A stretch of DNA of 64,000 bases from Treponema sp. UBA4873 (GCA_002399405.1 DHDP01000013.1:150784-214783), one strand, 5' to 3'. Shown: positions 5,210-60,366, numbered from the stretch's first letter. Notes: generated by a model not told the origin, from the sequence alone. Made by a program: numbers and translations.

Positions 5210-5218
5210 GCAGAACAA

Positions 5219-5560: not shown

Positions 5561-5597
5561 ATTCCGTAAACACTATGGTGTTGCGAATTACAGATTT

Positions 5598-5669: not shown

Positions 5670-5714
5670 CTATTGCTGCACTAATAAAGCGGCCGGAAAA
5701 CGCAAAGACCATTT

Positions 5715-36359: not shown

Positions 36360-36794
36360 TTAAATTTTTTTCTCGGTATAAATCGTTTTGAAAACACCGC
36401 TGTCGTCGGTATTCGCATAGTCGGCGGTATATCCGAGTTTTTCGTAAAAGCCGACGGCCTCGTCGCGGCTCGTGATGATAACATCGTTCACACCGAACGA
36501 TTTGAGCCACTCTTCCGCACCCGCGACAACCTGCCGTCCCACTCCTTTACCGCGGTATTCTTCCAGAACGCAGACGCGCTCGATTTTAGCGCGGCCACCG
36601 TCGAGAATGTGAAGACGGCACGTTCCGACGGGGAGACGGCCATCGAGCGCGAGAATATATTTCGTTTCCGGCGTATCTCGTTCGTCGAATTCCTGATCGA
36701 GCCGGACGCCGAAACCCCTGATCATTGCCTGCGTGCGCACGTAATGAACGCCCGCGCGCTGCCATTCGTTTTCTGCATGGATAATCGTTATCAT
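36360..36794 (-). CDS. GNAT-family N-acetyltransferase
   Basis: 144 aa. Acetyl-CoA site pattern VLEEYRGKGVGRQVV. Confidence 0.8.
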   Translation of the reverse strand: MITIIHAENEWQRAGVHYVRTQAMIRGFGVRLDQEFDERDTPETKYILALDGRLPVGTCRLHILDGGRAKIERVCVLEEYRGKGVGRQVVAGAEEWLKSFGVNDVIITSRDEAVGFYEKLGYTADYANTDDSGVFKTIYTEKKI

Positions 36795-36809
36795 TTGTTT
36801 ATACTCCCC

Positions 36810-37574
36810 TTAAATTACGTAATCAAGATTCGACAGCGCTTTCGTCTTATACAGAAAATCTTTGAGACGCTGGCTCCGAGGATTTTCAAACAGCTGTTTT
36901 GCAGTCCCCTGTTCGACAATTTTTCCCTTCTCAAGAAAAATTACTTTATTGGAAACCTGCCGTACGAAATTCATCTCGTGCGTTACGAGCAGAATCGTGT
37001 TTCCGTCCTGCGCCGCCTTGCGGATTGTCGCAAGTACTTCGCCGACAAGTTCCGGATCGAGCGCGGACGTCGGTTCGTCCATAAGCAGCAGCCGCGGTTC
37101 CATTGCAAGCGCGCGTGCGATAGCGACGCGCTGCTGCTGTCCGCCCGATAAATGCGCCGGATAGTGATAAAGCCAGCCGCCGAGTCCGACTTTCTCAAGC
37201 TGCGCCCGAGCCGTGCGCTCAGCTTCCGCCCGACTGTATTTTTTTACGACGATCAGTCCTTCCATCACGTTCTCAAGGACTGTCTTGAGTTTAAAGAGAT
37301 TGAACTGCTGAAAAACCATCTCCGTATACCGGCGGAGTTCGTGAAGTTCTTTTCCCTTAATGCTGCTCAAATTGAATTCGGTCCCGCCGATAGTGACGTT
37401 CCCCTGCTCCGGCTGCTCGAGCAGATTCAGGCAGCGCAGCAGCGTCGATTTGCCTGTTCCCGACGGACCGATAATGCTTACGACAGTCCCCTCTTCTATG
37501 CTCAAGTCCACGCCGTCGAGTACGACGTTCGTTCCGAATTTTTTAGCCAGACTGCGTATTTCTATCGTGCTCAT
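36810..37574 (-). CDS. polar amino acid ABC transporter ATP-binding protein
   Basis: GPSGTGKST, LSGGQQQRVAIARAL, LLMDEPTSALDPE (GlnQ/TcyC-like). Confidence 0.88.
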   Translation of the reverse strand: MSTIEIRSLAKKFGTNVVLDGVDLSIEEGTVVSIIGPSGTGKSTLLRCLNLLEQPEQGNVTIGGTEFNLSSIKGKELHELRRYTEMVFQQFNLFKLKTVLENVMEGLIVVKKYSRAEAERTARAQLEKVGLGGWLYHYPAHLSGGQQQRVAIARALAMEPRLLLMDEPTSALDPELVGEVLATIRKAAQDGNTILLVTHEMNFVRQVSNKVIFLEKGKIVEQGTAKQLFENPRSQRLKDFLYKTKALSNLDYVI

Positions 37575-38314
37575 ATTTCCGCTCCTGAAGGAACTCCCTT
37601 CGGTACAACCGGGCTGTCCGGAACAGTGAAGCGTTTTTCAAGAACGCGGAATATCCGCTCAATGACGAGCGTCAGTCCCCAGTAAATAATCGCAAGCGAA
37701 CAGTACGATTCAAAATAGCGGTAGCTTGTCCCCGCGAGTATTTTTCCTTCCGCCGTCATTTCGACAACCGAACAGGAAAAGGCAAGCGACGTTCCTTTTA
37801 AAAGAGCTATGAGCGAATTCCCGAGCGACGGAAGCGCCACCGCAAGCGCCTCGGGAAACAGAATACGGCGCAGTATCTGCATGTTCGTCATGTTGATCGA
37901 CTTAGCCGCTTCTATCTGTCCCTTGTCGACGGAATTGATTGCGGAGCGGATCGTTTCCGAATCGAACGCTGACTGATTCAGTCCGAGCGCGACGATTGCG
38001 AACACTATCGACGGTATGCTGTTGATGTTGTAGCTGCTCCCGTGATAGTAATTAAAATACTTGAGTGCGAGCGGAATGCCGAAATACGACAGATAGAGCT
38101 GTACGATAATCGGCGTACCGCGCATGACGGAAACGAACACTGCCGCAATCTGGTAAAGCACCGGTATTTTGTTCTGCTTTACAAGCGCAATAATAAGTCC
38201 GAGCACCCAGCCGATAATCATCGCTGCAACAGTCAGTTCGAGCGTGACCGGCAGATATGCAAGAAGCTGCGGTATCTGGGTAAAAACAAGTTCGGCATCA
38301 AAAAGCTTGGGCAT
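37571..38314 (-). CDS. polar amino acid ABC transporter permease
   Basis: 247 aa, HisM/GlnP-type, EAA-like segment VDKGQIEAAKSINMTNMQILRRILFPEA. Confidence 0.85.
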   Translation of the reverse strand: MPKLFDAELVFTQIPQLLAYLPVTLELTVAAMIIGWVLGLIIALVKQNKIPVLYQIAAVFVSVMRGTPIIVQLYLSYFGIPLALKYFNYYHGSSYNINSIPSIVFAIVALGLNQSAFDSETIRSAINSVDKGQIEAAKSINMTNMQILRRILFPEALAVALPSLGNSLIALLKGTSLAFSCSVVEMTAEGKILAGTSYRYFESYCSLAIIYWGLTLVIERIFRVLEKRFTVPDSPVVPKGVPSGAEI

Positions 38315-38330
38315 CGGAGACCTCGTTCAC

Positions 38331-39182
38331 TTACTGCTGCGCTTCCGGTGTGTAGTCCTCACCGAAATATTTTTCGCAGATTGTTTTCGACGTTCCGTCT
38401 TTTATCACTTCCGCAAGTCCTTTGTTGATATCCTGCACGAGCTGCTCGTTTCCTTTGCTTATAATCAGGTAGCTGTACGGCTCACCCATAATCTGCTTCG
38501 ACACAGTGTCGGAAACTTCAAGCGGCTTCAGATTAAAGTGATACTGTTCGTTGTAGACGCCGTACATCGGTTTGTCGATGATGAGAAAATCGTATTTACC
38601 GGCTTCAATGTCCTGCAGCTGTGAAATCAAATCCGCTTCGGTGTACTGGATTTTTATCTGCTTGTCAGGATTCGCGTCGTTGTATTCCTTTACCGACGTC
38701 GTAACGTTTGCAGCCGCGTCTCCGACGCATGTTTTGCCGCTCAGTTGGGAAAAATCCTCAATACTGTCGAGGGTGATTTTTCCCGGATTCACGACGATGA
38801 CGTACCTGTTTCTGAAAATAGGATCGGAAAAAAGGTACTTCTCTTTCCGCGATTCAGTCTGTACGAAATTGTTCACACCGATCTGATAGCGGTCGGAGTC
38901 GAGTCCGGCGAAAATAGACGAAAAATCCGTTTTTTCGATAACGAGTTTGTACTGGGGCAGTCTTGAAAAAATCGCCTGAATCAGTTCGATATTTTCGCCG
39001 ACAAGTTCATTCTTTTCATTGACGTACGTAAACGGACGCGGCATTCCGCCCGTAACGGCATATACCGTTTTGACGTCTTTTCCTTCGGCCTTTGCCGAAT
39101 CTGCGTTCTTTTTTGCACACGACGTAACAGCCAGAACTGCAGCCGCGGCTGCAATCATCTGTATTCCTATCCTTTTTTTCAT
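38331..39182 (-). CDS. amino acid ABC transporter substrate-binding lipoprotein (family 3 SBP)
   Basis: Lipobox LAVTSC. Type-3 SBP length and motifs. Confidence 0.8.
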   Translation of the reverse strand: MKKRIGIQMIAAAAAVLAVTSCAKKNADSAKAEGKDVKTVYAVTGGMPRPFTYVNEKNELVGENIELIQAIFSRLPQYKLVIEKTDFSSIFAGLDSDRYQIGVNNFVQTESRKEKYLFSDPIFRNRYVIVVNPGKITLDSIEDFSQLSGKTCVGDAAANVTTSVKEYNDANPDKQIKIQYTEADLISQLQDIEAGKYDFLIIDKPMYGVYNEQYHFNLKPLEVSDTVSKQIMGEPYSYLIISKGNEQLVQDINKGLAEVIKDGTSKTICEKYFGEDYTPEAQQ

Positions 39183-39207: not shown

Positions 39208-39272
39208 ACCTATTTGTTTAGTAGGTTTTTATATAGTGAGGATATACTACTAAACCGGTAGGTAATTGTCAA
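39208..39272 (-). promoter_or_regulatory. promoter with two ACCTA-N9-TAGGT-type palindromes upstream of the SBP gene
   Basis: The minus strand reads TTGACA (39272-39267), 17 nt spacer, TAGTAT. Site 1 (39245-39263, one mismatch) lies in the spacer and site 2 (39208-39226, perfect) lies downstream. Confidence 0.55.
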
Positions 39273-39303: not shown

Positions 39304-39975
39304 TTACCGGCGTTCTTCGCTGTTTTCTGTCCGAATTTTTACGTCCCGTATGTAGTTGTATATGGTGTATTTTGAAACACCAAGCTCAGCAGCGACAATA
39401 TCGACTGCCCCCTTTATGTCGAAAATCCCCTGTTCCTGAAGCCGCTGAATAATACTTTTATTTTTTTCAATCGGAGCAATACCGGTAGCTTCGCTCGTTT
39501 CTTTCAGCACTTTCAGAAAGGCGGCGTGGACAAGATTTTCCACTTTGTCGGGATAACTTTCTCCAGCAGATTTATCTTCCGCCCCCCGTTCAGGAGTCAT
39601 GAGTATTTTCATAAACTGATTAAGCGGAGCACTTATATCAAAGCGTATACGGATGCAGCCGATAAGTTCTCCGCCGTCGTTTCTTATAATTATTAATACG
39701 GAGCGGAACTGTTTTCCTGAAGTACTGCCTGATATATACGGGCCTATGCAGTTTTCCGGCGTATGTTCCGCTTTTTTCACCAGTTCAATTTCGGAACCGG
39801 TCAGAAGCGGTTCGTCCTGACGCGCTGAATCAGCAGAGCTGTCTTCATATACGAGAGCCTGCGTTCCGCCGTCGAGAGAGTAAATACGTACGTCGCAGCA
39901 GCTGCCGAATATTCTGCTTATCCCGTCTGCTGCGGCCGTATACGATTCTAATTTTTTCCTGTTTTCTTCAGTCAT
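39304..39975 (-). CDS. YheO-like transcriptional regulator (PAS-like N-domain plus C-terminal HTH)
   Basis: 223 aa. C-terminal AVDIVAAELGVSKYTIYNYIRDV HTH. The N-terminal sensor-like domain has the YheO pattern (ISRIFGSCCDVRIYSLD..). Confidence 0.6.
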   Translation of the reverse strand: MTEENRKKLESYTAAADGISRIFGSCCDVRIYSLDGGTQALVYEDSSADSARQDEPLLTGSEIELVKKAEHTPENCIGPYISGSTSGKQFRSVLIIIRNDGGELIGCIRIRFDISAPLNQFMKILMTPERGAEDKSAGESYPDKVENLVHAAFLKVLKETSEATGIAPIEKNKSIIQRLQEQGIFDIKGAVDIVAAELGVSKYTIYNYIRDVKIRTENSEERR

Positions 39976-45181: not shown

Positions 45182-46138
45182 CTACTCGGCGAACAGTCCC
45201 GTGCTCAGATAACGCAGCCCCGTGTCGGGCAGAATCACCGCAATCGATTTCCCCTTGAATTCGGGACGCTCAGCAATCTGCGTTGCAGCCCAGAGCGCAG
45301 CCCCTGAAGAAACGCCGACGAGTATTCCGTCCGACTTTGCAACTTCACGAGCGGCTTTAAAGGCGTCAGCCGCACGAACGGTAATCGCTTCGTCGTAAAT
45401 CGTCTTGTCGAGATTCGGCGGAACGCGGGAAGGATCGACGTCTGAAAAACGGTGGACGCCCGTTATGTCGTTTTCCTCAAGTACCGGTTCGACCGCAGCG
45501 ATGTAGATTTTTTTGTTTTTTCCTCTCAGATATTTTCCCGTGCCGCTCAGCGTTCCGCCCGTTCCGACGCTGGCGACGAACACGTCCACGTCTCCGCCCG
45601 TATCGCGCCAGATTTCCTCTCCGGTTGTCTCATAATGACTCGCAGGATTTGCAGGATTCGCGAGCTGATTGACGTTTAAGTCGCCGCTCTGCGCCAAGAG
45701 GTCGAACAGAAGAAAACCGGCCGCCATGAAATCACCGCCCGTTTCGTCGAGCTTCTGTTTTACTTCGGGAACTTCGCTCATATTCACAAGCTCCGCTCCG
45801 TACGCTTTTATTACCTGCTTGCGTTCTTCGCTCACGAAGTCCTGAATATACGTTTTAAAATGATACCCTTTGGAAGCGGCCAGCGCCGCAAGCGCAATTC
45901 CCGTGTTTCCGCTCGTCACTTCGACGAACGAACCGCCCGGCTTCAAACTTCCGTTTTTTTCAGCATCCTCTATCATGCCTTTAGCAATACGGTCCTTTAC
46001 GCTGTTCGTCGGGTTAAAATATTCAAGCTTTCCCAGAATCGACGCGCTCAGATTGTGCCGCTTTTCATAGTTAACAAGCTCCAGAAGCGGCGTGTTCCCT
46101 ACCAGTTCACTGATTGACTTGTGAATGTTTTTACTCAT
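45182..46138 (-). CDS. cysK: cysteine synthase A (O-acetylserine sulfhydrylase)
   Basis: GNTPLLEL, PLP-lysine context FNPTNSVKDRIA, TSGNTGIALA, GTGGTLSG. Confidence 0.9.
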   Translation of the reverse strand: MSKNIHKSISELVGNTPLLELVNYEKRHNLSASILGKLEYFNPTNSVKDRIAKGMIEDAEKNGSLKPGGSFVEVTSGNTGIALAALAASKGYHFKTYIQDFVSEERKQVIKAYGAELVNMSEVPEVKQKLDETGGDFMAAGFLLFDLLAQSGDLNVNQLANPANPASHYETTGEEIWRDTGGDVDVFVASVGTGGTLSGTGKYLRGKNKKIYIAAVEPVLEENDITGVHRFSDVDPSRVPPNLDKTIYDEAITVRAADAFKAAREVAKSDGILVGVSSGAALWAATQIAERPEFKGKSIAVILPDTGLRYLSTGLFAE

Positions 46139-46370
46139 AGTTTATCTCCCATTAAAAATAAGACTCAAAAAAAAGTCCCGACACCGCTTCCAATTGCAGT
46201 ATCAGGACCTCCGGTTATCCAGTCAGTTCCCCGGGAAACGCTTCCCGTACAGTTACGCAGAACACGCTGAGTAAATCCTCATGACTTAATCAGCGGTCCC
46301 TTGTACTCCTTATTTACCTACTTTTATAATAGGTTTTTAGTATATTATAATTGTTTCACCCATTTGTCAA
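46139..46370 (-). promoter_or_regulatory. promoter plus structured 5' leader with intrinsic terminator (leader copy A) upstream of cysK; unclassified riboswitch/attenuator candidate
   Basis: TTGACA (46370-46365), 17 nt spacer, TAATAT (46347-46342). ACCTA-N9-TAGGT at 46316-46334. The conserved core is GGAACTGACTGGATAACCGGAGGTCC (reverse complement of 46205-46230). A 13-bp stem (46175-46187 with 46196-46208) is followed by U8 (46167-46174), about 30 nt before the ATG. Confidence 0.7.
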
Positions 46371-46417
46371 GTATTTTAGTAGGCAATAAAGGGAATGTTT
46401 CACAAATTCAAACTTAT

Positions 46418-47569
46418 TTAATCGGCTTCATTCAGATACTCGAAAACGTAGTTAATGAGAAATTCAACTCCGTATTTCAGAACGCCTTCGTCGACTATCG
46501 TTTTGTTCGTATGGCCGACTGTATATTTCTCATTGACCGCAGCACCCACATGAATGAACGTTCCCGGTATAAATTTCTGATAAAGCGCAAAGTCCTCTCC
46601 GCCCATGAACGGTCTCCCCCATTTTACAGCTTTGCTGCCGTAAAGACGCTGTATGACTTTTACAGCCCTGTCGGTGCAGGTTTTGTCATTATTCACGGAA
46701 ACACCCGGCCCCCAGAAATCCGCGGCAACATCGGCACCTGCAGTCTCCGCTATATTTGCCGCGATTTCCCGTACCGATTTATTAAAAATGTACACATTTG
46801 ATTCCTGAAGCGTTCTGAAATTATACGATATATCGACAGATACAGGTTTGCCGTTTTCCTGATGAGTAGCTACGACAGTCGGGACGGTAACAACCTGCTC
46901 GTTCTGCGGATACCCGTATGCGGCAAGAGCGCTCACGTTGTTTATTATCTGCGACGCGGTAATTATGAGATTGGAAGTAAGGCTGTCGCGTTTTTTCAGA
47001 TGGATTTCGATGTTCGCGCCTATTGAACTCGCAATTCCGTATCCTACTTCGAATACGCCGAGATCGAGCGTCGTTGCATTATGAAGTCCTATGATAGTGT
47101 CAACATCATTCAGTCCGCCGGCTGCAACGATTTTTTTCGCTCCGGCGCCGATCTCTTCGCCTTCCTGAAAAAATATCTTTACGGTTCCGTGAATCTGCTC
47201 TTTCAGTTCATTGAGCAGCTTTGCAGTTCCAAGCATAAAAGTGATATGAGAGTCATGGCCGCAGGCATGCATAACGCCCTCGTTCTTCGACGAAAACGGA
47301 ACACCAGTTTCTTCTTCGACAGGCAGCGCATCAATGTCACCGCGCAGCGCTATTGTCTTTCCGGTTTTACTTCCTTTTATCGTTGCTATGATGCTCGTTG
47401 CGGGAATTTTTTCATAGCTTATGCCGAGCCTGTCGAGTTCGCCTGCAATATATTCGCAGGTTTTAAATTCCTGACTTCCAAGTTCGGGATATTCATGAAA
47501 ATGCTCGTAATTTTTTCTCAGATAGGTATCATTATCTTCGACAAGTTTTCTTATTTCTTCCTGTGACAT
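46418..47569 (-). CDS. M20D-family amidohydrolase (N-acyl-amino acid deacylase / YxeP-like)
   Basis: 383 aa with HEYPELGSQE, ALRGDIDALP, HACGHD, and C-terminal GGEDFALY..FIHVGA. Confidence 0.8.
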   Translation of the reverse strand: MSQEEIRKLVEDNDTYLRKNYEHFHEYPELGSQEFKTCEYIAGELDRLGISYEKIPATSIIATIKGSKTGKTIALRGDIDALPVEEETGVPFSSKNEGVMHACGHDSHITFMLGTAKLLNELKEQIHGTVKIFFQEGEEIGAGAKKIVAAGGLNDVDTIIGLHNATTLDLGVFEVGYGIASSIGANIEIHLKKRDSLTSNLIITASQIINNVSALAAYGYPQNEQVVTVPTVVATHQENGKPVSVDISYNFRTLQESNVYIFNKSVREIAANIAETAGADVAADFWGPGVSVNNDKTCTDRAVKVIQRLYGSKAVKWGRPFMGGEDFALYQKFIPGTFIHVGAAVNEKYTVGHTNKTIVDEGVLKYGVEFLINYVFEYLNEAD

Positions 47570-47584
47570 TTCCGACGCTCCCTG

Positions 47585-47947
47585 TTATTCACCGAACGCT
47601 ATATCGACAGTGCCTGCATTTACGGATGCGATTTTTTCCGCCGTGTCGGTTACTATTTTTCTTGTTTTTTCTATTTCGTCTTTCGTTTCGAAGACACCCT
47701 CGTATGTTATATCCGCCGTATCGGGAATAATATTCGATTTCTGCCCCGCATTGAATTCAACAGGTTCGAATCTGAAATTGTCGAAACTGTCGAATTCATA
47801 CGCAAGTCTTGCTGTTATGATATTTATTATTTCCGCAGCAGTGACTATAGGATCATGACATTTAAATGGAACGGAACTGTGTCCGCCTTTTCCGTTTACT
47901 GTAATTTTTGCAGAAAGTAAATTTGCTGCCATAACAGGCCTCCACAT
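47585..47947 (-). pseudogene. stand-alone fragment corresponding to the lid/dimerisation domain of an M20D amidohydrolase
   Basis: 120 aa. ITVNGKGGHSSVP..DPIVTAAEIINIIT..NAGQKSNIIPDTADITYEG matches the middle third of M20D enzymes. The N-terminal metal-binding half and the C-terminal part are absent. The ORF is squeezed between the ABC ATPase stop (47960) and the full-length M20D start (47569). Confidence 0.55.
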
Positions 47948-47959
47948 ATACTCAATTTA

Positions 47960-48718
47960 TTATATTGCATATTCCGGCGGAATCCTTACGTTATTTTTCG
48001 CGAGAAATTCCTTTGTACGGAGATTTTGCGGAGCGTTGAAAATCTGCTCCGGTGTTCCGCTTTCGACGATTCTGCCTTTTTCGAGAAAAATCACCTTTGT
48101 CGCTACGTTGTATACGAACGACATTTCGTGCGAAACGAGAATCATCGTATTGCCGTTCTCTGCTATTTTTCTGATTGTCTGAAGCACTTCCTCCACCAGT
48201 TCAGGGTCGAGCGCGGAAGTAGGTTCGTCGAACAGAAGCAGTTCCGGTTCCATAGCAAGCGCGCGTGCAATGGCAACCCGCTGCTGTTGTCCGCCCGACA
48301 AATGCTGCGGATAATAATCGCTCCTGTCGGAAAGGCCCACGAGCGACAATTCTTTTTCGGCGATCTTTTCAGCCTCTTCTCTACTCTTTTTCTTAACAAC
48401 AATAAGCCCTTCCATAACATTTTCAAGCGCTGTCTTTTTCTTAAAGAGATTAAACTGCTGAAACACCATGCCGATCCGCTTCCGCAGCTCTATTATGTCT
48501 TTCTTCGCATGCAGCACATAATCGAATTGAAAATCGTCCAATGAAATAGCTCCTCGTTCCGGTTTCTCAAGAAGGTCTATGCATCTCAAAAACGTCGACT
48601 TACCCGTTCCCGACGGACCTATAATTGCAACAACATCGCCCTTGCCGATTGAAACGCTCACTCCGTCAAGCACGGTGTTTCCGTTGAAAGATTTGTAAAT
48701 ATCTTTTATCTCAATCAT
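47960..48718 (-). CDS. polar amino acid ABC transporter ATP-binding protein (paralog of 36810-37574)
   Basis: GPSGTGKST, LSGGQQQRVAIARAL, LLFDEPTSALDPE. Confidence 0.88.
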   Translation of the reverse strand: MIEIKDIYKSFNGNTVLDGVSVSIGKGDVVAIIGPSGTGKSTFLRCIDLLEKPERGAISLDDFQFDYVLHAKKDIIELRKRIGMVFQQFNLFKKKTALENVMEGLIVVKKKSREEAEKIAEKELSLVGLSDRSDYYPQHLSGGQQQRVAIARALAMEPELLLFDEPTSALDPELVEEVLQTIRKIAENGNTMILVSHEMSFVYNVATKVIFLEKGRIVESGTPEQIFNAPQNLRTKEFLAKNNVRIPPEYAI

Positions 48719-48721
48719 ATG

Positions 48722-49477
48722 TTATTGTCCCCTGCATTCGGCAACGGCTACTTTTGCGGAATCGTTTTTTCCGACAACATCAGGCACTTTCACTGCTTTA
48801 CTGATAAGACGGATAATCTGTTCAAGCACAATAACAAGCGCCCAATAAATTACCGCGAGCGCAACGTATGCCTCAAAGTAGCGGTAATCGCGCCCTGCTA
48901 GAATTTTTCCCGCGGCCGTCATCTCTATGACAGAACAGCTGAACGCAAGCGACGTACCTTTTATTAATCCTATAAGCGTGTTGCCGAGCGGCTGAATCGC
49001 AAGCTCCACGGCCTCCGGAATGACGATTCTCCTGAGGGACTGCCACCCCGTCATACCGATTGCCTGCGCTGCTTCCACCTGTCCCTTGTCGACTGCTTCG
49101 AGCGCCGAGCTTATGACAACGGAGTTATATGCGGCCTGATTGAGCGCAAGCGCGGCTATCGCGTAAATAATCGGCGGAATGGCCGCTACGTTGTAATCTG
49201 TTCCGTTCCAGTAATTAAGGTACTGAAGAAAAATCGGTATGCCGAAATACGAAACGTACAGCTGCACAATAATCGGCGTTCCCCGTATCACCGAGATGAA
49301 AACGATCGACAGCTGATTCAGCACTTTGATTTTTTTTATGCGGATAACCGCGATAACGAAACCGAGCAGCAGGCCCAGCACCATCGACCATAATGTCAAA
49401 TATAACGTAACGGGAAGATATTTCAACATTGCGGCAATATCAGTGCCGACAACCTTTATATCGAACAGATTCAGCAT
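48722..49477 (-). CDS. polar amino acid ABC transporter permease (paralog of 37571-38314)
   Basis: 251 aa. VDKGQVEAAQAIGMTGWQSLRRIVIPEA. Confidence 0.85.
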   Translation of the reverse strand: MLNLFDIKVVGTDIAAMLKYLPVTLYLTLWSMVLGLLLGFVIAVIRIKKIKVLNQLSIVFISVIRGTPIIVQLYVSYFGIPIFLQYLNYWNGTDYNVAAIPPIIYAIAALALNQAAYNSVVISSALEAVDKGQVEAAQAIGMTGWQSLRRIVIPEAVELAIQPLGNTLIGLIKGTSLAFSCSVIEMTAAGKILAGRDYRYFEAYVALAVIYWALVIVLEQIIRLISKAVKVPDVVGKNDSAKVAVAECRGQ

Positions 49478-49489
49478 AGCGGCCTCTGT

Positions 49490-50386
49490 TTATTTACCGT
49501 CGGTAATTTCGTGCGCTTTTTCCACATCCGCGAGCGCAGGGGCAATGTTTTTCCCTTCGAAATATTTTCCGCTGATAGTTCCGATTGTTCCGTCCGCAAG
49601 CGCTTCTCGGTATGCCTTGTTCATGTCAGCAGCAAGCTGAGGATTTTTTTTCGAAACTATGAAAAAATTTCCGAGCGTAAGCAGCGGGCCGCCGACTGCT
49701 CCGAGTTCCTCCTTCGTTACATCAATAAATTGAAGTCCCTTTATTCCCGCATTCTTAACCTGGCTCTTCATAGAAACTGTCGTAAAGAAATAAAAATCTA
49801 TCTTGCCGGCCGACACGTCGACCGGATACGTATTAACGTTGTCGACGTATATCAGTTTCACCGGATTTTCGGGATGCTGTTTATTATACGTCTCGAACAA
49901 ATTGGCGTTATACGAAGACGAATCGACTTCAGTTGTATGGCCGCCGATGTCCTTAAACGATTTGATTTCGCTGTTTCCCTGTTTAACAAGAAGCGCGTGC
50001 GGATCAAAAGCATATTCATCCGTAAAGATGTATTTTTCGCCGCGCGATTTATTGTAGCCGAAATGATTGCATCCGACCTGATATAATCCCGCATCGATGC
50101 CGGTGAATATCGAAGGAAATTCAGTTATCTGAATGCTGAATTCGTACCGGGGAAGGCGACTGAAAATTTCCGTGAGCACTTCTATATCATACCCGGTTAA
50201 TTTTCCGCTGTTATCCACCGTTACGAACGGAGCAGGACCTCCGCTCGTTGCCGCGACAATCCTCTGTTTTTGAACGGAAGAACCGTCGTTCTTTTTTTTG
50301 CTCTTCGAAAATCCGCCGAAGACAACAGTCGTCATCATGAATACAGCCGCCAGAACACGCACTGCGGAATTATTTATTTTTTTCAT
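49490..50386 (-). CDS. amino acid ABC transporter substrate-binding protein (family 3 SBP)
   Basis: 298 aa with a signal peptide and the type-3 SBP pattern. First gene after leader copy B. Confidence 0.8.
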   Translation of the reverse strand: MKKINNSAVRVLAAVFMMTTVVFGGFSKSKKKNDGSSVQKQRIVAATSGGPAPFVTVDNSGKLTGYDIEVLTEIFSRLPRYEFSIQITEFPSIFTGIDAGLYQVGCNHFGYNKSRGEKYIFTDEYAFDPHALLVKQGNSEIKSFKDIGGHTTEVDSSSYNANLFETYNKQHPENPVKLIYVDNVNTYPVDVSAGKIDFYFFTTVSMKSQVKNAGIKGLQFIDVTKEELGAVGGPLLTLGNFFIVSKKNPQLAADMNKAYREALADGTIGTISGKYFEGKNIAPALADVEKAHEITDGK

Positions 50387-50627
50387 ATTGATGCCTCCTT
50401 GAATATGAAAATGAAGTGAAAATAAAAAAAAGGTTCCGACACCGCTTTTTAAATTGCGGTATCGGAACCTCCGGTTATCCAGTCAGTTCCTCGGGAAACA
50501 CATCCCGTAATACTACCCGGGACTGCTGAGTAAATCCTGCCGGTTCAATCAGCCGTCCCGTGTTCCTTATTTACCTAGTTTTACAATAGGTTTTGAGCAT
50601 AATATAATCGATTCAGCTGTTTGTCAA
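50387..50627 (-). promoter_or_regulatory. promoter plus structured 5' leader with intrinsic terminator (leader copy B)
   Basis: TTGACA (50627-50622), 17 nt spacer, TATTAT (50604-50599). ACCTA-N9-TAGGT at 50573-50591. The core (reverse complement of 50464-50490) is identical to copy A except for the last bases. A 14-bp stem (50432-50445 with 50456-50469) is followed by U8 (50424-50431). Confidence 0.7.
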
Positions 50628-50675
50628 GTATTTTAGTGGGATTTGGAGAATTATACGAAAATAATATTATTATTT

Positions 50676-52695: not shown

Positions 52696-54603
52696 TCAAT
52701 AGCCTCCCGAGCCGCCGCCTGCACAGCAGCTGCCGCTGCTGCCAGTATTATAATAATCGTCGGGATATACAAGTGTTTCGAACGACGATGCCTCCTTTTT
52801 TACCGCCGCCGTGTCTATTTTTGATATATCGTCGACAGTTTTGACGTATCCGAAGAAGATACTGTCTCCTGTCGAGAATCCGAAACTTTCGCGGGGCATC
52901 ACGAACAGACTGTTCTCGGACTGCTTTTCAAGCGGCACTATCGTCGTATACGCGGGAACTCTGAGTTCCGCGCTGCCGTCGTCGTCCGATTTGTTGCTGA
53001 TAATCCACTGCGCAGGGATATCCTTCTGAAGCACTACGACGGCGGGCGAAAATCCTTCGTCGGTGAGCGTTATGCGTACTGTCTGGATATTCTGTCCTTC
53101 GTACGTATCCGGCCGGGCAACGGCAATTTCGTCCACCGGAATCGTGTAGCCGGAAGGCTTCGGCCCCTGCTGGTCGGGTTCGGAGGCTGCGGCGTCGAGC
53201 GAGGCCTGGTCGGCTACGACTTTTATGGAACTCCTTATCATGCCCATCCAGCAGCTGTAGCGGAACGTGCCCGTTTTGTCGGGGGTGAACGTAATTGTAT
53301 TTTCGCCCGTTTTAAATTGATATTGGATGTTGTATTCCGGAATAATCATCCTGTTGTTGCATCCGTTGATGCTTCCGGGAGGCGCGTTGATTGTCCATTT
53401 TACGGGAACGCCCTGCCTGACGGTAATCGACGGATATCTGCCGGAAGCGAGAGTCGAGCTCACGGTCTGCACTCCGTTTTCCGTTTTTGCGGCGGAGCTG
53501 CCGGATGCTGGTTTTCCCGTACTCTGTGCGGCCGATACGGCGCTGGCGGGAAGAAATCTGTCGAGCGACAGGCCCGAAAGTACCCAGCCCTGAGAAAACA
53601 TGGTGATTCCCATAACAGTCACGATGCACGCCCCTACGGTCATGACGCGGTGCGTGAACTTTTTGCTCAGCACAGTGCTCAGCACGCCGAGTCCGAACAT
53701 GAGCGGAACTGTTCCAAGCGCAAACAGCAGCATAGCCGCAGCTCCGCGGAGTGCGCTGCCGGAGGCAAGCGCATACAGCTGCATCGCCTGCAGCGGTCCG
53801 CACGGCATAAGTCCGTTGAGCAGCCCTATAACAAAAGGATTCGTGTTCGTACCTTTTATGCGGTTCAGTTTCGAACCGAGACGGGCCGGCATATGCGGCA
53901 CGATATACCGTAAAAACGGAAACAGGCCGAGCATGTTTATTCCCATGATGACCATGAAAACTCCGGCAGCAAGCTGCACCGCCCCGCGCGCTTTGCCGGA
54001 GAACGAAAACACCGAGCCGATGCCGCCCGCAATGCCGCCTGTTATCGTATAGGAAACAACCCGGCCTCCGTTGTACAGCAGACTCGGAAAGAGAGAGCTT
54101 TTTACTCCGGCCGGACTGCCGTTCCGCGCCAGTGTCTGGGAAAGATTGATTCCCCCGCACATCGCAATACAGTGAACGGAGGTGATGAGCCCTATGACGA
54201 ACATCATGCCGAGTCCCATCCCCGCCTCCGCCGTCGGGAATGCGCTGAAAATCGACGCACCGTAACGGTCGAACAGCAGCGCCGCCGTGACGATGACTGC
54301 AAGCAGACCGAAAGCCCGTGCCCAGACAGGAGTCCGGGGCTGAGTCTGAATCACGTCGTCGTTTCCGGAAATACCGTAGCCGAGCTCTTCGACGATTTTC
54401 CTGATGTCGGACGACGAAACGATCGCGGTGTCGTAGACGACCTTAGCCGTACCTGCGCGGTAACTGACGATAACTGATTTGACACCGTCTGTCGACGCCA
54501 GTTTCTGCTCGATTCTGTTCTGGCAGGCGATGCACGACATACCGGTTATACGGAAAAACTCCGTTTTCACCGTGGATTCCTGAGATTGTTCACTGTGTTC
54601 CAT
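52696..54603 (-). CDS. multidomain membrane protein: N-terminal HMA metal-binding domain, DsbD_2/TauE-like polytopic domain, two cupredoxin-like domains and a Cys-Cys/Gly-rich tail
   Basis: GMSCIACQNRIE (HMA CxxC). Membrane core with SVHCIAMCGG and LMPCGPLQ. YPSITVRQGVPVKWTINAPPGSINGCNNRMIIP..FRYSCWMGM (cupredoxin-like). C-terminus SSGSCCAGGGSGGY. Confidence 0.65.
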   Translation of the reverse strand: MEHSEQSQESTVKTEFFRITGMSCIACQNRIEQKLASTDGVKSVIVSYRAGTAKVVYDTAIVSSSDIRKIVEELGYGISGNDDVIQTQPRTPVWARAFGLLAVIVTAALLFDRYGASIFSAFPTAEAGMGLGMMFVIGLITSVHCIAMCGGINLSQTLARNGSPAGVKSSLFPSLLYNGGRVVSYTITGGIAGGIGSVFSFSGKARGAVQLAAGVFMVIMGINMLGLFPFLRYIVPHMPARLGSKLNRIKGTNTNPFVIGLLNGLMPCGPLQAMQLYALASGSALRGAAAMLLFALGTVPLMFGLGVLSTVLSKKFTHRVMTVGACIVTVMGITMFSQGWVLSGLSLDRFLPASAVSAAQSTGKPASGSSAAKTENGVQTVSSTLASGRYPSITVRQGVPVKWTINAPPGSINGCNNRMIIPEYNIQYQFKTGENTITFTPDKTGTFRYSCWMGMIRSSIKVVADQASLDAAASEPDQQGPKPSGYTIPVDEIAVARPDTYEGQNIQTVRITLTDEGFSPAVVVLQKDIPAQWIISNKSDDDGSAELRVPAYTTIVPLEKQSENSLFVMPRESFGFSTGDSIFFGYVKTVDDISKIDTAAVKKEASSFETLVYPDDYYNTGSSGSCCAGGGSGGY

Positions 54604-54605
54604 AA

Positions 54606-55106
54606 TCAGCTTCTTTTCCAGTTTCCGAAGATTGATTTTGCCTGCTTCAGCAGCGCAAGAGGTACGGTGATTTTCGTGTCGGTCTCCTGCTTGTACTGTT
54701 CGGGAACAGGGACAGGATTACATCCGCCCGCACGCACGCCCACCTGGCTCATACGGAACCTGTTGCCGCAGTTCTGGCAGACAAGCACGCTTCCTTCCTG
54801 CCGGTAAAATCCGCGGCCGGAATTGTAGCAGACCTGGCACGTATTGAACGCTGTTCTCACAGTTCCGTCAGGAGCGCGCACCGCGAGCACTTCAATCCGC
54901 GTGCCGTCTATGTCGGCCGGGAAGAACACCGCGTTTTTGCCGATTTCGGAGACGTTGATGACAATGTCGCTGTTTTTTACCGCAGACCGCACCGTGTTAA
55001 GGGCGGACGTCCCTGACTGGGCCGCGGCGCGCGCAGCACCGGCAGCTGCAAACATGCCGGTGAAAAAAAGCACCTGAAAAATCTTTTTGGACGGATTAAA
55101 TTTCAT
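54606..55106 (-). CDS. DUF2318-like Cys-rich exported/membrane protein
   Basis: Signal/anchor segment, then CQVCYNSGRGFY..VCQNCGNRFR..GGCNPVP (four-Cys zinc-ribbon-like pattern). ATG at 55106 with AAGGAA upstream. Confidence 0.5.
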   Translation of the reverse strand: MKFNPSKKIFQVLFFTGMFAAAGAARAAAQSGTSALNTVRSAVKNSDIVINVSEIGKNAVFFPADIDGTRIEVLAVRAPDGTVRTAFNTCQVCYNSGRGFYRQEGSVLVCQNCGNRFRMSQVGVRAGGCNPVPVPEQYKQETDTKITVPLALLKQAKSIFGNWKRS

Positions 55107-55218
55107 TTCTGTGTTCCTTACTGTCTGAATTTCAGAACCTCTATGTTCCGATACATCCAAATATAAGGGACAACTGTGTATAAATTATGTAGCCGGCGGA
55201 AACAATTTTACAAAACAG

Positions 55219-56502
55219 TTACAGATCGTCGTACAGGTCTTCAACGAGCGTCAGGCAGCCCCTGTATCCGCCGTACGTGCGGTTGAACACGAGTTTGTCG
55301 GTTACGGGATACGACAGAACGCTGCACTGACACCCTTTCCGGCTGCCGATTTCCCGTTCGTTCGTGCTGCCGATAAGCAGCGTGATTTCGTCGTTTTTCG
55401 CAAGCAGTTTTTCAATGTCGTACTGGTCTGAGGCAAAATACACTTCCGGCGCACGCGCATATTCCAAATTTGTTATGCGTTTTCTGACTGCATCCTTATC
55501 TTTGTCGCGGAACAGCGGTTCGCTCACAATCGTCAAAAGCGGCGTAAAACTGTAGTCGTTCGCGAGAAAGCGCGTAAATCCGACCGCATAGTTCGAATCG
55601 CTTACGACTGCGAAACGCTTCCAGCTGAGCTTTCCGATCGCCTGCTCGAAATAATCGTAGACGTACTCCTCTTCCTTCCGTACGACAGATTCCACTTTTC
55701 CGGAATCAAGCGAAAGCGCTTCCCCTACCTGACGTACGAATGCGGTCGTATCTGTCGCACCGACAGGCATTCCCTCTATTCGAAGCGTCGGAATGCCGAA
55801 CTGCCCGGACAGTTTTTTCTCGGCACCGCGGAGCAGCCAGGGATGAATGATGATGTTCAGCGCCGCACTGCCTGCCCGCTTCACCGCGTCGATTCCCTGA
55901 TGTTCCGTAAAAAACGTGTTGACTTCGAGACCGAGCGCCCTGAGTATGCGCGTAAACTCTTCCAGCGTTCCGCTCCAGTACGGATCGTGATAGGGAACGA
56001 TGCCGAACAGATTAACGAGATTCTGCTGCCTCGGCCCTTTAACCATGATTTTGTCTATAAACGTATCTATGACGGACTCGTATCCGAGCATGTCGTTTCC
56101 GGCAAATCCCGGCGTGTCGATAGCGTACACAGGCTTCGGCGCATTTTTGAATTCCGAAACGACGCTCTGGATGTCGTCCCCGTTTATGCCCGCAGTGCAT
56201 CCGGTAAGCACAAAATACGCGTCCGCGTCGATTATCTCCATCGCTCCCTGAATAGTCGTGCGGAGCTTGTCCGTCCCGCCGAACACGACCTCTTTCTCAA
56301 GCATGTTCGTCGAAGGCAGTGAAACTCCCGAAAGAAACGACGCAGTCCTGCCGCACGACTGTCCCTGCTCCGACGCGCACGTCTGCATGCAGCATCCGGG
56401 ACCTGAATGGTACACCGGACAGAACCGGTCGACTGCACTGAGCACGGCGTTGATTCCGGCAAGCGCGCACCCTCCGCGGGGATTCTCAGTTACTTCCGAC
56501 AT
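55219..56502 (-). CDS. nitrogenase component 1-like protein, beta (NifK/NifN-like) subunit
   Basis: 427 aa. NPRGGCALAGINAV, VYHSGPGCCMQ and FVLTGCTAGINGDDIQSV align by eye with the three P-cluster Cys regions of NifK. Confidence 0.75.
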   Translation of the reverse strand: MSEVTENPRGGCALAGINAVLSAVDRFCPVYHSGPGCCMQTCASEQGQSCGRTASFLSGVSLPSTNMLEKEVVFGGTDKLRTTIQGAMEIIDADAYFVLTGCTAGINGDDIQSVVSEFKNAPKPVYAIDTPGFAGNDMLGYESVIDTFIDKIMVKGPRQQNLVNLFGIVPYHDPYWSGTLEEFTRILRALGLEVNTFFTEHQGIDAVKRAGSAALNIIIHPWLLRGAEKKLSGQFGIPTLRIEGMPVGATDTTAFVRQVGEALSLDSGKVESVVRKEEEYVYDYFEQAIGKLSWKRFAVVSDSNYAVGFTRFLANDYSFTPLLTIVSEPLFRDKDKDAVRKRITNLEYARAPEVYFASDQYDIEKLLAKNDEITLLIGSTNEREIGSRKGCQCSVLSYPVTDKLVFNRTYGGYRGCLTLVEDLYDDL

Positions 56503-57965
56503 GTATTTTCTCCTGCTGCTTTAATATATTTAAACGGATCTTCGCTGTACCACGACTCCCTGTACGGAAGGCGCGCGTGAGCGGCGAGCTTTACGTTGAA
56601 TCCGGGATTCTCTATCTGGTCAGCCATTTTGTTGCCGAGATACAAAAGACCGTCGTATCCCATCGTCGGACGCTTTCCGTCGAGAACGTGCGTCGTCGGT
56701 ATGCCGAAACGCGCGGACCATTCGGGAACGCCGATGAACACGTCGGGCTTCAGCCTGTTCACGATGTTCACCTGTTCGAACGGTTCCATGTTCGCCACGT
56801 CGACGACAAAATCCTTGTGTATGCCGTTGAGGTATTCAATGTCGGTCTGCGCGTCCTGATTGTACGTCGGCGTTTCGAGCCCGACAAGTTTCATGCCGAA
56901 GTCGTCTATAAGCGCGGCTGCCGCAAACGAGCGGCCCGTTCCTCCGCAGATGAACACGCGCTTTCCTTCGAGCCGTTTCCGTATGCGGGCGACAAGCGGA
57001 AGAATCCGTTCATGCTCGCGCGCAATTATTTCCTCCGCTTCCTTTTCCTTTCCCGCGACTTTAGCGATGCCGCGGAACCACGCGTCCGTGTTGCGTACTC
57101 CGATCGGCATGACCGTGTGCGAATACGGAATACCGTATTTCCGCTTCAGTTCAATCATGAATTCGTCCGCGAACACCTTGCAGATGGACGTCGATGCTGA
57201 TGCGGCCGGTATTTTAAGGATCGACTCGAGGCTGCCGTAGAACGGAATGTAGTTCACCGTAAGTCCGAGCTGCCCGAGCATCCGCTCCATTTCAAGCTGA
57301 TCCTTGTAGCTGACAGTCGTCGGCGCGAACAGATTGACGAGCCCCGGAATCTTCGGTACGTGCCTGTCTTTCAGAATGTACTTCGAAATGGAAATGAACG
57401 CGCTGTCGAAGCCCGACGCGCAGATTTTCGATTTGAATCCTTCGCAGTGAACGGGAACAAGAATCGCCTTACTGTTCGCCTGTTCGTTTTCCACTATGCC
57501 GTCGAGGTCGTCGCCTATCATGCCGGACGCGCACGACGCGTAGATGAATATCAGTTTCGGCGCATACCGTTCCTCCGCCTGGTGAATCGCCCGCACAAGT
57601 TTTTTGCCGCCGCCGAAAACAATATCGTCCGAATCAAGATTGGTGACAATGATGTGCGGATTGCGTATGTATTTTACACCGCGGTGCGCCTGACCGACGC
57701 GGTACATATCCACTGCCATAACGGTGCACCCGACGCATCCCTGAGGCGAATGGGCTATGAAGACAGCGTCGTCGAGCGACATGAGCGCCGCCATGCTGTT
57801 TATCTCCTGACACTGCAGCCCCTGCGCAAACGTCCTGTCGGCGGCTTTGAGACATTTCTTTTCGAAACTGTACGCCAGTTCTTCGCTGCTTCCGCCGAGA
57901 TCGTTGTACGTTTCCGGCCGTCGCTCCCGTATTCCCGAATATGTTTCCGGCATCCCCTGCTCCAT
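56490..57965 (-). CDS. nitrogenase component 1-like protein, alpha (NifD/NifE-like) subunit
   Basis: 491 aa. LQCQEINSMAAL, IAHSPQGCVGC, DIVFGGGKKL, IYASCASGMIGDD, VPVHCEGF, STSICKVF..KRKYGIPY and GIPTTHVLD resemble NifD regions, including the FeMo-co Cys/His positions. Confidence 0.75.
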   Translation of the reverse strand: MEQGMPETYSGIRERRPETYNDLGGSSEELAYSFEKKCLKAADRTFAQGLQCQEINSMAALMSLDDAVFIAHSPQGCVGCTVMAVDMYRVGQAHRGVKYIRNPHIIVTNLDSDDIVFGGGKKLVRAIHQAEERYAPKLIFIYASCASGMIGDDLDGIVENEQANSKAILVPVHCEGFKSKICASGFDSAFISISKYILKDRHVPKIPGLVNLFAPTTVSYKDQLEMERMLGQLGLTVNYIPFYGSLESILKIPAASASTSICKVFADEFMIELKRKYGIPYSHTVMPIGVRNTDAWFRGIAKVAGKEKEAEEIIAREHERILPLVARIRKRLEGKRVFICGGTGRSFAAAALIDDFGMKLVGLETPTYNQDAQTDIEYLNGIHKDFVVDVANMEPFEQVNIVNRLKPDVFIGVPEWSARFGIPTTHVLDGKRPTMGYDGLLYLGNKMADQIENPGFNVKLAAHARLPYRESWYSEDPFKYIKAAGENTCRK

Positions 57966-57974
57966 TAATAATTA

Positions 57975-59075
57975 TTATTTTATGATTTCTTCGAGTACTC
58001 TGATCACTTCGGCATTGTCTTCCCGTGTGCCTATCGATATCCGCACCCACGTGGGAAGACCGAACTCAGCAGCCGGACGTATCAGTATTCTCCGTTTCAG
58101 GAATTCGGCCTCGATCCACGTGCTGTCCTTTCCCGTATCGAACAGAATAAAATTCCCGTTCGATCTGATATAGTTCAGGCCGAGTTTCTCAAGTTCAGTA
58201 TAGTAGAGTTCCAGCCCTTCCCTGTTGTTCTCCAGAACTTTTTTTCTGAACTCCGCATCGTCGAGGCTCACCAGTGCCGCTTCCTGTGCGAGCGTGTTCA
58301 CGTTTATGGGTATGCGGACTTTGTTCATATTCCGTATGATTTCAGGATTCGTTATTCCGAATCCTATTCTGAAAGACGCAAGGCCGTAGACTTTCGAAAA
58401 AGTTCTGAGAAGAATTACATTCGTAAATTTCTTCAACAGGTACACAGTGTCGGGATATTCTTCGGATATGAAGTCTATATACGCTTCATCAAGAACAACA
58501 ATAATATCACTTCTGACTGCCTCAAGAAAATTAAGCAGCTCGTTCTGACCGAGCAGCGTTCCCGTCGGATTGTTCGGATTGCATATCCATATAACTTTCG
58601 TTTTTCCGGTTATTTTCTTTTGTATACTGTCGAGATCGATTCTAAAATTCGTCAGGGGCACGTATACCGGTACGGCGTCCATCTGCAGCGTGACGTTCGT
58701 ATACCAGCCGAACGACGGGACGGGAATGACTGACTCACCGCCCGGTTCGAGAAAAGTCTCTGCAACGAGCGAAATCAGTTCGAACGAACCGTTCCCGAAA
58801 ATAAAATCAGCTTCGTCTGTTTTATACACGGACGACAGTTTTTCCCGGAGCTTCGTGCAGTTCGTATCGGGATAATACGGCAACAGGCTGACATTCTTCA
58901 CCGCTTCAGCTGCACGGGGAGAACAGCCTAATCTGTTTTCGTTCCCTGCAAGTTTGATGACGTCGGAAAAACCGTATTCTCTTTTCACCGATTCAAGCGT
59001 CCGCGCCGGACGGTAATCGCTTATTTTTTCCAGAGCCGTCCGCGCCCTCACCGCCGTATTATTTTTTCTGAACAT
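57975..59075 (-). CDS. class I/II PLP-dependent aminotransferase (HisC/CobD family)
   Basis: IKLAGNENRLGCSP.., YYPD, VWICNPNNPTG, RTFSKVYGLASFRIG (PLP Lys). Start at ATG 59075; the ORF track start at 59123 would overlap the upstream gene by 65 nt. Confidence 0.8.
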   Translation of the reverse strand: MFRKNNTAVRARTALEKISDYRPARTLESVKREYGFSDVIKLAGNENRLGCSPRAAEAVKNVSLLPYYPDTNCTKLREKLSSVYKTDEADFIFGNGSFELISLVAETFLEPGGESVIPVPSFGWYTNVTLQMDAVPVYVPLTNFRIDLDSIQKKITGKTKVIWICNPNNPTGTLLGQNELLNFLEAVRSDIIVVLDEAYIDFISEEYPDTVYLLKKFTNVILLRTFSKVYGLASFRIGFGITNPEIIRNMNKVRIPINVNTLAQEAALVSLDDAEFRKKVLENNREGLELYYTELEKLGLNYIRSNGNFILFDTGKDSTWIEAEFLKRRILIRPAAEFGLPTWVRISIGTREDNAEVIRVLEEIIK

Positions 59076-60350: not shown

Positions 60351-60366
60351 GTATGCGGCGGCATGT

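Follow-up and report, generated by a model that had tools for sequence, protein, structure and literature searches.

Here we describe a small RNA hairpin shared by the leaders of three operons in 64,000 nucleotides (nt) of Treponema sp. UBA4873 DNA (GCA_002399405.1 DHDP01000013.1:150784-214783; the whole stretch is called the window below, and positions count from its first letter). The hairpin is very probably a genuine cis-regulatory RNA of a sulfur regulon. Three minus-strand cassettes each combine a sigma-70 promoter, a palindrome, a shared 26-nt core and a strong terminator, and they stand ahead of cysK (copy A), an amino-acid ATP-binding cassette (ABC)/M20 operon (copy B) and an alcohol dehydrogenase (ADH)/nitrogenase-like operon (copy C). 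The core folds as a hairpin that shares a strand with the terminator, both of its helices covary, and it recurs in sulfur-gene leaders of several phyla, in many cases just downstream of yezD, a small gene of the DUF2292 family. We tentatively propose that YezD clamps this hairpin and so would let RNA polymerase pass the terminator when sulfur is limiting.

A sequence-only reading of this stretch had described the same promoter, leader and terminator architecture three times, and all of these elements were located on the minus strand where it had placed them. The core, GGAACTGACTGGAYAACCGGAGGTYC, occurs exactly three times in the 64 kb, at 46205-46230, 50465-50490 and 60250-60275, always on the minus strand, and was not seen in any of 100 shuffles even with three mismatches allowed. 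The promoter sequence ATACTTGACAAA is also present three times (46363-46374, 50620-50631 and 60343-60354), with 0.29 occurrences expected. Its -35 box, 17-nt spacer and TAATAT or TATTAT -10 box had been read correctly, and the three TTGACA-17 nt-TAATAT/TATTAT promoters are among the top sigma-70-like sites in a scan of 44-62 kb. The palindrome lies 3' of the -10 box in every cassette, the long G+C-rich terminator hairpins of copies A, B and C run into tracts of U8, U8 and U6, and 28, 37 and 52 nt, respectively, separate the end of the U-tract from the start codon. The description of the cassettes is accurate, and the shared architecture is far beyond chance.

The hairpin measures 25-27 nt and is built from a basal helix (P1), a UGA/AG internal loop, a second helix of 4 bp (P2) and an A-rich loop. 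The fold that had been drawn from the three window copies, GGAAC-UGA-CUGG-AYAA-CCGG-AG-GUUCC, is supported by covariation in both helices. Copy A lacks one U in its 3' strand (GGUCC, not GGUUCC), and its P1 is weaker for that reason. Using a metagenome pattern in which the three inner P2 pairs were degenerate and pairing was not required, we obtained at least 120 loci. Among the metagenome matches listed, P2 is pair-compatible in 113 of 124, compared with 25% expected from the pattern, by means of eight pair combinations (CUGG/CCAG in 46, CCGG/CCGG in 17, CUGG/CCGG in 12, CUAG/CUAG in 10, CCAG/CUGG and CCAA/UUGG in 8 each, and others); the listed matches that do not pair are mostly in apparently coding sequence with no terminator. 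When 99 distinct sequences were aligned with guidance from the covariance model, every P2 cell (100%) was paired, and two of the P2 pairs changed on both sides, in 34 and 19 cells. The observed covariation score was reached by 0 of 500 shuffles, and slid registers collapse.

P1 is AAC/GUU in most lineages, with partial covariation of the next two pairs, and takes the form CGC/GCG or UUGC/GCGG in Bacilli and GAGC/GCUC in Binataceae. What stays invariant is C-UGA-C facing G-AG-G, except that AG becomes AA in two Gram-negative lineages. In the RNAfold drawing, the internal loop consists of a U-G pair and then a 2x1 GA/A loop, and the hairpin loop is 4-6 nt long with A at both ends. K-turn, loop-E and tandem sheared G-A readings of UGA/AG were set aside by reasoning alone, as the strand polarity does not fit, and a SECIS or RF2-type reading of UGA-C was dropped because most copies have no open reading frame (ORF). 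No conserved Shine-Dalgarno (SD) sequence or start codon was found 3' of GGAGG. The Gram-negative AA variants (locus L179, 3900-3930; locus L183, 2722-2745) stand ahead of anion-porin genes and show SD/start-codon sequestration rather than a terminator.

The core had not been matched to the S-box, SAM-II to SAM-VI, SAH, glycine, lysine or canonical T-box consensus sequences, and searches of Rfam 15 (4227 covariance models) agree. A cmscan of the whole window at the gathering score returned tRNAs only, leaders A and B gave only noise even at E<=10, and the motif in 14 related loci had no match in a scan that did detect S-adenosylmethionine (SAM) and flavin mononucleotide riboswitches, which serve as positive controls. 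An exact-pattern scan with one genome per species found 46 loci. About nine of these lie inside ORFs without terminators, near the chance number, and the remaining ones are intergenic leaders from Lachnospiraceae, Ruminiclostridium, Selenomonas/Veillonellaceae, Phascolarctobacterium, a Bacteroides metagenome-assembled genome (MAG), Geobacteraceae, Methylococcales and a Treponemataceae MAG; the last also has a diverged core copy flanked by a nitrogenase-like gene and cysK. The exact-pattern loci were used to build a covariance model, which found more copies in the same loci, with altered P2 helices. Taken together, the pattern scans and the model yield at least about 139 distinct instances, which span Clostridia, Negativicutes, Bacilli, Spirochaetes, Methylococcales and soil bacteria. 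Carried beyond this genome, as the sequence-only reading had proposed, the search thus found covariation and a sulfur gene context across phyla. The core neither matches an Rfam family nor is confined to this genome, and the idea of an unclassified antiterminator/terminator switch in a sulfur regulon is supported on both counts. The searchable literature holds no description of the hairpin RNA or of a molecular role for DUF2292, and Rfam 15 does not hold the family. There is a small chance that the hairpin RNA has already been described in literature outside that searched. The RNA family, its sulfur regulon and the connection to YezD appear to be new; the type of mechanism, antiterminator against terminator, is classical.

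The first downstream gene was tallied for 92 non-redundant instances, and almost all of these genes serve sulfur acquisition. NifB-like radical SAM proteins account for 13 of the 92. Binding and transport functions include NMT1 and SBP_bac_3 binding proteins, ABC permeases, anion porins (porin O/P) and sulfate-binding proteins, and the enzymes include Cys_Met_Meta_PP proteins, NifH, SAM synthetase, PFL-like glycyl-radical enzymes, cysK, URO-D-like proteins and PAPS reductase. A preprint reports induction of nitrogenase-like Mar/Nfl systems when sulfur is limiting (bioRxiv 10.64898/2026.08.20.746119), and RNA-level control of these systems is not mentioned in the searchable literature. The comparative data also bear on a simpler view of the window, in which the cassettes are duplicated promoter and terminator DNA and a DNA operator alone controls them, with no regulation at the RNA level. 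This view would account for the promoter and operator that the three cassettes share, and for a fourth promoter that has the operator and lacks the hairpin (see below). It is contradicted by leaders with no promoter sequence in common, which across phyla retain the hairpin through compensatory changes, and we regard it as highly improbable.

As had been pointed out, the 3' strand of the core doubles as part of the terminator stem, and this overlap is present in all three copies. The core hairpins of copies A, B and C have energies of -7.3, -12.2 and -12.2 kcal/mol, and the terminators, which reuse the hairpin 3' strand (GGUYC), have energies of -23.6, -27.3 and -28.5 kcal/mol; the hairpin alone is 12-16 kcal/mol weaker than the terminator. 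The general features of an attenuator are found here, with a terminator between the promoter and the first gene and a conserved alternative structure that is mutually exclusive with it. A U-tract follows within 140 nt in 122 of the 139 distinct instances listed, and in 99 of those 122 the minimum free energy fold pairs at least 4 nt of the motif loop or 3' half with downstream sequence. The terminator register varies, starting from GGAGGUU in Treponema and Selenomonas and from GACAACCGG in Lachnospiraceae. Soil contigs and Binataceae have no U-tract; a long helix instead ties up the same nucleotides with the SD or start-codon region, and in the soil contigs it sequesters the AUG in place of a terminator. 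Since the hairpin is the alternative to the OFF structure and is too weak to win alone, it probably acts as an ON switch that a factor stabilises.

One such factor could be a tRNA. In a degenerate T-box, the core UGGA would pair with the UCCA end of uncharged tRNA-Cys and thereby stabilise the antiterminator, and the UGGA itself, the cysteine-related genes and the antiterminator/terminator layout would all suit such an arrangement. The T-box model RF00230, however, matched neither leader A nor leader B at E<=10 and nothing across the window at the gathering score. A Stem I or specifier loop would also not fit in copy C, where about 45 nt separate the transcription start from the hairpin, or in most other instances, where an ORF stop or a short A-rich leader precedes the motif. 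Moreover, the UGG is inside P2 rather than unpaired, and that strand of P2 covaries to CCGG, CUAG, CCAA and CCCG. The covariation of the UGG positions effectively refutes a T-box.

The neighbourhood of the hairpin in other genomes points to a protein. Many Firmicute copies start right after a small ORF ending in ...IVQIEKxEKIRL, which is DUF2292/YezD in Pfam. In a hidden Markov model census, a same-strand DUF2292 ORF ends no more than 200 nt upstream in 51 of the 139 instances listed (37%). The motif UGA is itself the yezD stop codon (...IRLKN-stop) in 14 of the instances listed and the stop abuts the motif in 8 more, while the stop-to-motif distance overall ranges from overlap to more than 100 nt. 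A search begun from the YezD proteins (6,529 family members) found the hairpin downstream in every lineage examined. The order yezD, hairpin, NifB-like gene is seen in a Treponemataceae locus (L034) and in L184, which is probably also from Treponemataceae (its YezD is 84% identical to that of L034). In Alkalihalobacillus (L176), yezD and the hairpin are followed by cysH-sat, and in Thermolongibacillus (L177) an S-box precedes yezD, the hairpin with its terminator, and cysH. The Binataceae locus L179 has the order Rrf2, yezD, NosD-like, hairpin, porin, and the L183 contig has yezD, hairpin, porin and sulfate-binding protein. A promoter-proximal regulator gene followed by an RNA site and a terminator, as in the hutP layout, is thus seen in L034, L184, L176, L177 and many metagenome loci, and the window is without yezD. 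Because at least five lineages have yezD on the upstream side of the switch, each time with a different cargo downstream, we favor reading the two as regulator and site, as with hutP; this placement is not what a riboswitch-controlled gene would show.

NCBIfam relates YezD to OscA, a sulfur starvation response protein (NF033785), through a match that is below the cutoff (32 vs 85 bits). In the accounts given by two later articles, oscA of Pseudomonas corrugata lies upstream of sbp, and its inactivation impairs the response to sulfur starvation and chromate (Viti 2009, as cited in PMC2996968 and PMC3596284). Selenomonadaceae/Veillonellaceae (Negativicutes) encode tandem two-domain DUF2292 proteins of about 106-121 amino acids (aa) (L016 3470-3814, L017 4352-4696, L028 1244-1606 and L130 649-1005), which hint that the functional YezD unit is a dimer. 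In the Binataceae contigs, an Rrf2-family regulator gene is immediately upstream of yezD (L179 1998-2456). In Thermolongibacillus, a SAM-I riboswitch (L177 2828-2936) and the hairpin with its terminator (3150-3205) make up two attenuators in series, separated by the small yezD ORF. The internal-loop UGA doubles as the yezD stop (...K-N-stop) in L015, L022, L034:1693, L038:1129, L054, L065, L184:700 and others, and L047 has a 10-codon remnant ORF, MNHKRIRLRN-stop, that ends at the motif UGA.

The position of the stop codon raises the question of translation-coupled attenuation, in which ribosomes finishing yezD would sit on the hairpin and choose between terminator and antiterminator, leaving the window copies as relics. 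Stops inside or abutting the motif and the decayed mini-ORF of L047 fit such a scheme. The window leaders, on the other hand, have no conserved ORF, a gap of 50-120 nt or more separates the yezD stop and the motif in Methylococcales, Binataceae and soil contigs, and YezD, with no Cys and no internal Met, cannot report the supply of sulfur amino acids. A purely ribosome-coupled mechanism is disfavored by the range of stop-to-motif distances, and we consider it very unlikely. A leader peptide was also rejected, as the 9-codon ORF with a Cys codon in copy A (MRIYSACSA-stop) is absent from copy B.

Our leading explanation, which we put forward tentatively, is that each cassette is a two-layer control region for sulfur limitation. 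In the first layer, a transcription factor would bind the palindromic operator at or beside the sigma-70 promoter. In the second, the leader RNA would fold by default as a very stable intrinsic terminator and transcription would stop ahead of the operon, and the conserved hairpin just upstream would use the same nucleotides as the 5' strand of that terminator. A trans-acting factor would then clamp the hairpin during transcription so that RNA polymerase reads through, giving an ON switch under sulfur limitation; a clamp would be required because of the energy gap between hairpin and terminator. The factor may be the approximately 50-aa YezD/OscA (DUF2292) protein, acting as a HutP-like antiterminator. 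In relatives, yezD is promoter-proximal with the hairpin and terminator immediately after it, and in this genome a yezD outside the window would act in trans on the three leaders. The assignment to YezD is credible and still short of probable, and the explanation as a whole shares that standing.

Several observations weigh against it. No DUF2292 gene was found either within the 64 kb of the window or over the 10 kb that follow its 3' end, and about 63% of the instances listed have no adjacent yezD. The AlphaFold 2 model of YezD is a helix with a beta-hairpin (predicted local distance difference test score 75); a Foldseek search with this model against the PDB found no match at E<=0.001 and no likeness to a known RNA-binding fold, a sequence search against the PDB found no match, and YezD is not markedly basic. 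In the Methylococcales copies, a competing structure is not obvious. Varied expression platforms around a small invariant core are, in addition, also typical of metabolite riboswitches.

A small-molecule riboswitch is therefore a serious rival. The hairpin would be an aptamer for a ligand that accumulates under sulfur limitation, such as O-acetylserine or N-acetylserine, and that stabilises the antiterminator or anti-sequestor, with YezD merely co-regulated. This would fit a core that is kept across phyla with modular platforms (terminators in two registers, AUG-sequestering helices), stems that covary around an invariant internal loop, the absence of an adjacent yezD from most instances listed and from all three window copies, and the one locus in which the hairpin is in series with a SAM riboswitch. 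However, invariance is limited to about 9 nt (C-UGA-C/G-AG-G) and loops range from 4 to 6 nt, which offers little for a pocket selective for an amino-acid derivative, and a riboswitch leaves unexplained the placement of yezD upstream in at least five lineages with different downstream genes. On balance, we think a riboswitch unlikely. Another RNA-binding protein, either a moonlighting sulfur enzyme or a new regulator, could also recognise the hairpin, in which case the adjacency of yezD would reflect a shared regulon. The invariant bulge/mismatch loop between C-G pairs does resemble a protein recognition site, and the YezD fold carries no RNA-binding signal. Besides sulfur enzymes and transporters, though, only DUF2292 is conspicuously recurrent nearby, as judged from inspected loci and not from a systematic census of neighbours, and a protein other than YezD seems to us a distinctly poorer prospect. 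The sequence-only reading had listed as possible effectors a cysteine-, methionine- or SAM-type signal, an RNA-binding protein and a tRNA. The protein, in the form of YezD/OscA, has become the strongest lead, ahead of the cysteine/methionine/SAM-type ligand and the tRNA.

The palindrome had been counted as part of the cassette. It is indeed present in all three, with the consensus CCTAYT-N5-ARTAGG, but it is best seen as a separate DNA operator, because it also occurs upstream of transcription starts and at a fourth promoter, where the RNA core is absent. In the window cassettes it is 3' of the -10 box; in Selenomonas loci and in L184 it overlaps the -35 box, and the yezD promoters of L034 and L184 have two occurrences. 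The fourth promoter drives an SBP_bac_3/permease/ATPase/GNAT operon (36360-39182). From its sequence and placement, the palindrome is a probable operator for a transcription factor. Immediately upstream of the fourth promoter, where the gene string of cysK has its distal end, lies a gene for a YheO-like regulator with PAS and HTH_22 domains (39304-39975, minus strand), whose product is a candidate binder of CCTAYT-N5-ARTAGG. An Rrf2/CymR homologue was not found in the window by phmmer with a single distant query.

The features of the window are collected in Table 1.

Table 1. Features of the three cassettes and of the fourth promoter in the window.
Feature	Position	Strand	Description
Copy A promoter	46342-46374	-	ATACTTGACAAA; -35 TTGACA at 46365-46370, 17-nt spacer, -10 TAATAT at 46342-46347
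Copy A palindrome	46317-46333	-	CCTATTATAAAAGTAGG; just past the -10 box; probable transcription-factor DNA operator
Copy A lineage-specific leader domain	46232-46316	-	Long hairpin GGGACCGCUGA...UCAGCGUGUUC plus hairpin CGGGAAGCGUUUCCCG
Copy A conserved RNA hairpin	46205-46230	-	P1 GGAAC/GUCC, internal loop UGA/AG, P2 CUGG/CCGG, loop AUAA
Copy A intrinsic terminator	46167-46209	-	GGUCCUGAUACUGC-N8-GCGGUGUCGGGAC-U8; 5' strand overlaps P1 3' strand
cysK (cysteine synthase)	45182-46138	-	First gene 3' of copy A; followed by ABC transporter genes
Copy B promoter	50599-50631	-	ATACTTGACAAA, 17-nt spacer, -10 TATTAT
Copy B palindrome	50574-50590	-	CCTATTGTAAAACTAGG; putative operator
Copy B conserved RNA hairpin	50464-50490	-	GGAAC UGA CUGG AUAA CCGG AG GUUCC
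Copy B intrinsic terminator	50424-50469	-	GGUUCCGAUACCGC-N10-GCGGUGUCGGAACC-U8; overlaps hairpin 3' strand
Copy B downstream operon	46418-50386	-	SBP_bac_3, permease, ABC ATPase, M20_dimer fragment, M20 amidohydrolase
Copy C promoter	60322-60354	-	ATACTTGACAAA, 17-nt spacer, -10 TATTAT; directly after the stop codon of the MetE-like gene
Copy C degenerate palindrome	60299-60315	-	CATATTGGAATAGTAGG; putative operator
Copy C conserved RNA hairpin	60249-60275	-	GGAAC UGA CUGG ACAA CCGG AG GUUCC
Copy C intrinsic terminator	60209-60254	-	GGUUCCGGCACUG-N14-CAGUGCCGGAACC-U6; overlaps hairpin 3' strand
Copy C downstream operon	52696-60156	-	Glycerol-dehydrogenase-like Fe-ADH, HisC-like aminotransferase, two nitrogenase-like (Oxidored_nitro) subunits, FtrD-like, DsbD_2/HMA protein
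Fourth promoter	39209-39270	-	TTGACA, palindrome CCTACTAAACAAATAGG, then TAATAGG; no RNA hairpin or terminator

Leaders A and B contain an extra two-hairpin domain of about 85 nt that separates the operator from the core hairpin (46232-46316 and 50491-50573, minus strand), and the whole leaders have z-scores of about -6. This domain has no relatives beyond one 95%-identical genome, no Rfam match and no counterpart in copy C, whose leader has only about 45 nt from the transcription start to the hairpin and no additional structured domain. The neighbourhood of the cassettes also encodes a MetE-like enzyme, a Cys/Met pyridoxal phosphate enzyme, and methionine and amino-acid ABC systems. In the copy B operon, a 120-aa ORF (47585-47947, minus strand) consists of the M20 dimerisation domain only and lies just upstream of the full 383-aa M20 amidohydrolase gene (46418-47569, minus strand); it may represent part of a broken gene or else an unusual split arrangement. 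The nitrogenase-like D/K pair of the copy C operon is accompanied by the Fe-ADH, HisC-like and FtrD-like proteins and a DsbD_2/HMA/cupredoxin protein, and in relatives cysK is directly 3' of such a pair. A NifH- or NifB-like gene was not identified among the annotated ORFs from 41.7 kb to the window end and 10 kb beyond (the first 40 kb are unannotated). Elsewhere, the window has a cluster of six tRNA genes (5053-5786), two copies of which are identical (5598-5669 and 5715-5786), and a lone tRNA gene at 23364-23437.

What is known of control under sulfur limitation in Gram-positive and anaerobic gut bacteria mostly concerns DNA-binding repressors, CymR among them, and S-box and T-box leaders. 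A broad RNA switch would add a missing layer ahead of cysK, cysH-sat, sulfonate and cystine transporters, isethionate-lyase-like enzymes and the nitrogenase-like organosulfur reductases, a recent discovery. YezD/OscA, with more than 6,500 sequence clusters, may represent a new family of RNA-binding proteins, acting in antitermination and translation activation with the hairpin as their cognate site, and sulfur starvation may thus be under pan-bacterial control after initiation; we advance this with the same caution as the YezD assignment. If true, the system would span Firmicutes, Spirochaetes, Proteobacteria and Acidobacteria-like soil bacteria, and under its control would come sulfate assimilation, cysteine synthesis, organosulfur scavenging and the Mar/Nfl enzymes of nitrogenase-like type. 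It would also offer DUF2292/YezD/OscA, whose earlier link to sulfur starvation and chromate resistance was genetic only, a concrete candidate molecular function. The alternative, which would make the hairpin the first riboswitch to sense a metabolite of sulfur limitation (O-acetylserine, for instance), would be equally novel. The hairpin (about 25 nt plus terminator) is also a compact marker for annotating sulfur-scavenging operons in metagenomes and a candidate part for synthetic sulfur-responsive control.

The proposed system can be compared with several known ones. Like YezD in the relatives, OscA of Pseudomonas corrugata is a small DUF2292-type protein encoded immediately upstream of sulfate-uptake genes; according to the accounts cited above it is induced by sulfur starvation or chromate and required for the response, and it is not known to have been assigned a molecular function or an RNA target. 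The S-box (SAM-I) and the Cys/Met T-box likewise attenuate transcription of cysteine and methionine genes, and in Thermolongibacillus an S-box lies upstream of yezD in the same leader. The hairpin differs from both in a wholly different, much smaller architecture with no Rfam similarity, and the switch is probably ON rather than OFF. The hydroxymethylpyrimidine pyrophosphate (thiS) riboswitch (PMC6478431) also intertwines a very small conserved element, a hairpin with an internal loop, and an intrinsic terminator. However, our hairpin has no Rfam match and competes with the terminator, whereas the thiS aptamer is embedded in it. The ribonucleic antiterminator (RAT) hairpins of BglG/LicT/SacY are about 27-29 nt long, have conserved internal loops, overlap part of the 5' strand of a far more stable terminator, are weak alone and are clamped by a protein. 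Here the sequence differs from the RAT consensus, there is one internal loop instead of two, and the context is sulfur rather than phosphotransferase-system sugars; no CAT/PRD domain was found in the Pfam matches of the window operons or among the 25 commonest downstream-gene families. In the hut operon of Bacillus subtilis, the small regulator HutP is encoded by the first gene, an RNA site and terminator follow directly, and binding blocks the terminator. YezD (about 50 aa, DUF2292) is unrelated to HutP, its putative RNA site is one internal-loop hairpin rather than UAG repeats, and the signal would be sulfur status rather than histidine. The gene order in the relatives of the window, in which the promoter is followed by yezD, the hairpin with its terminator and then the operon genes, nevertheless resembles that of hut.

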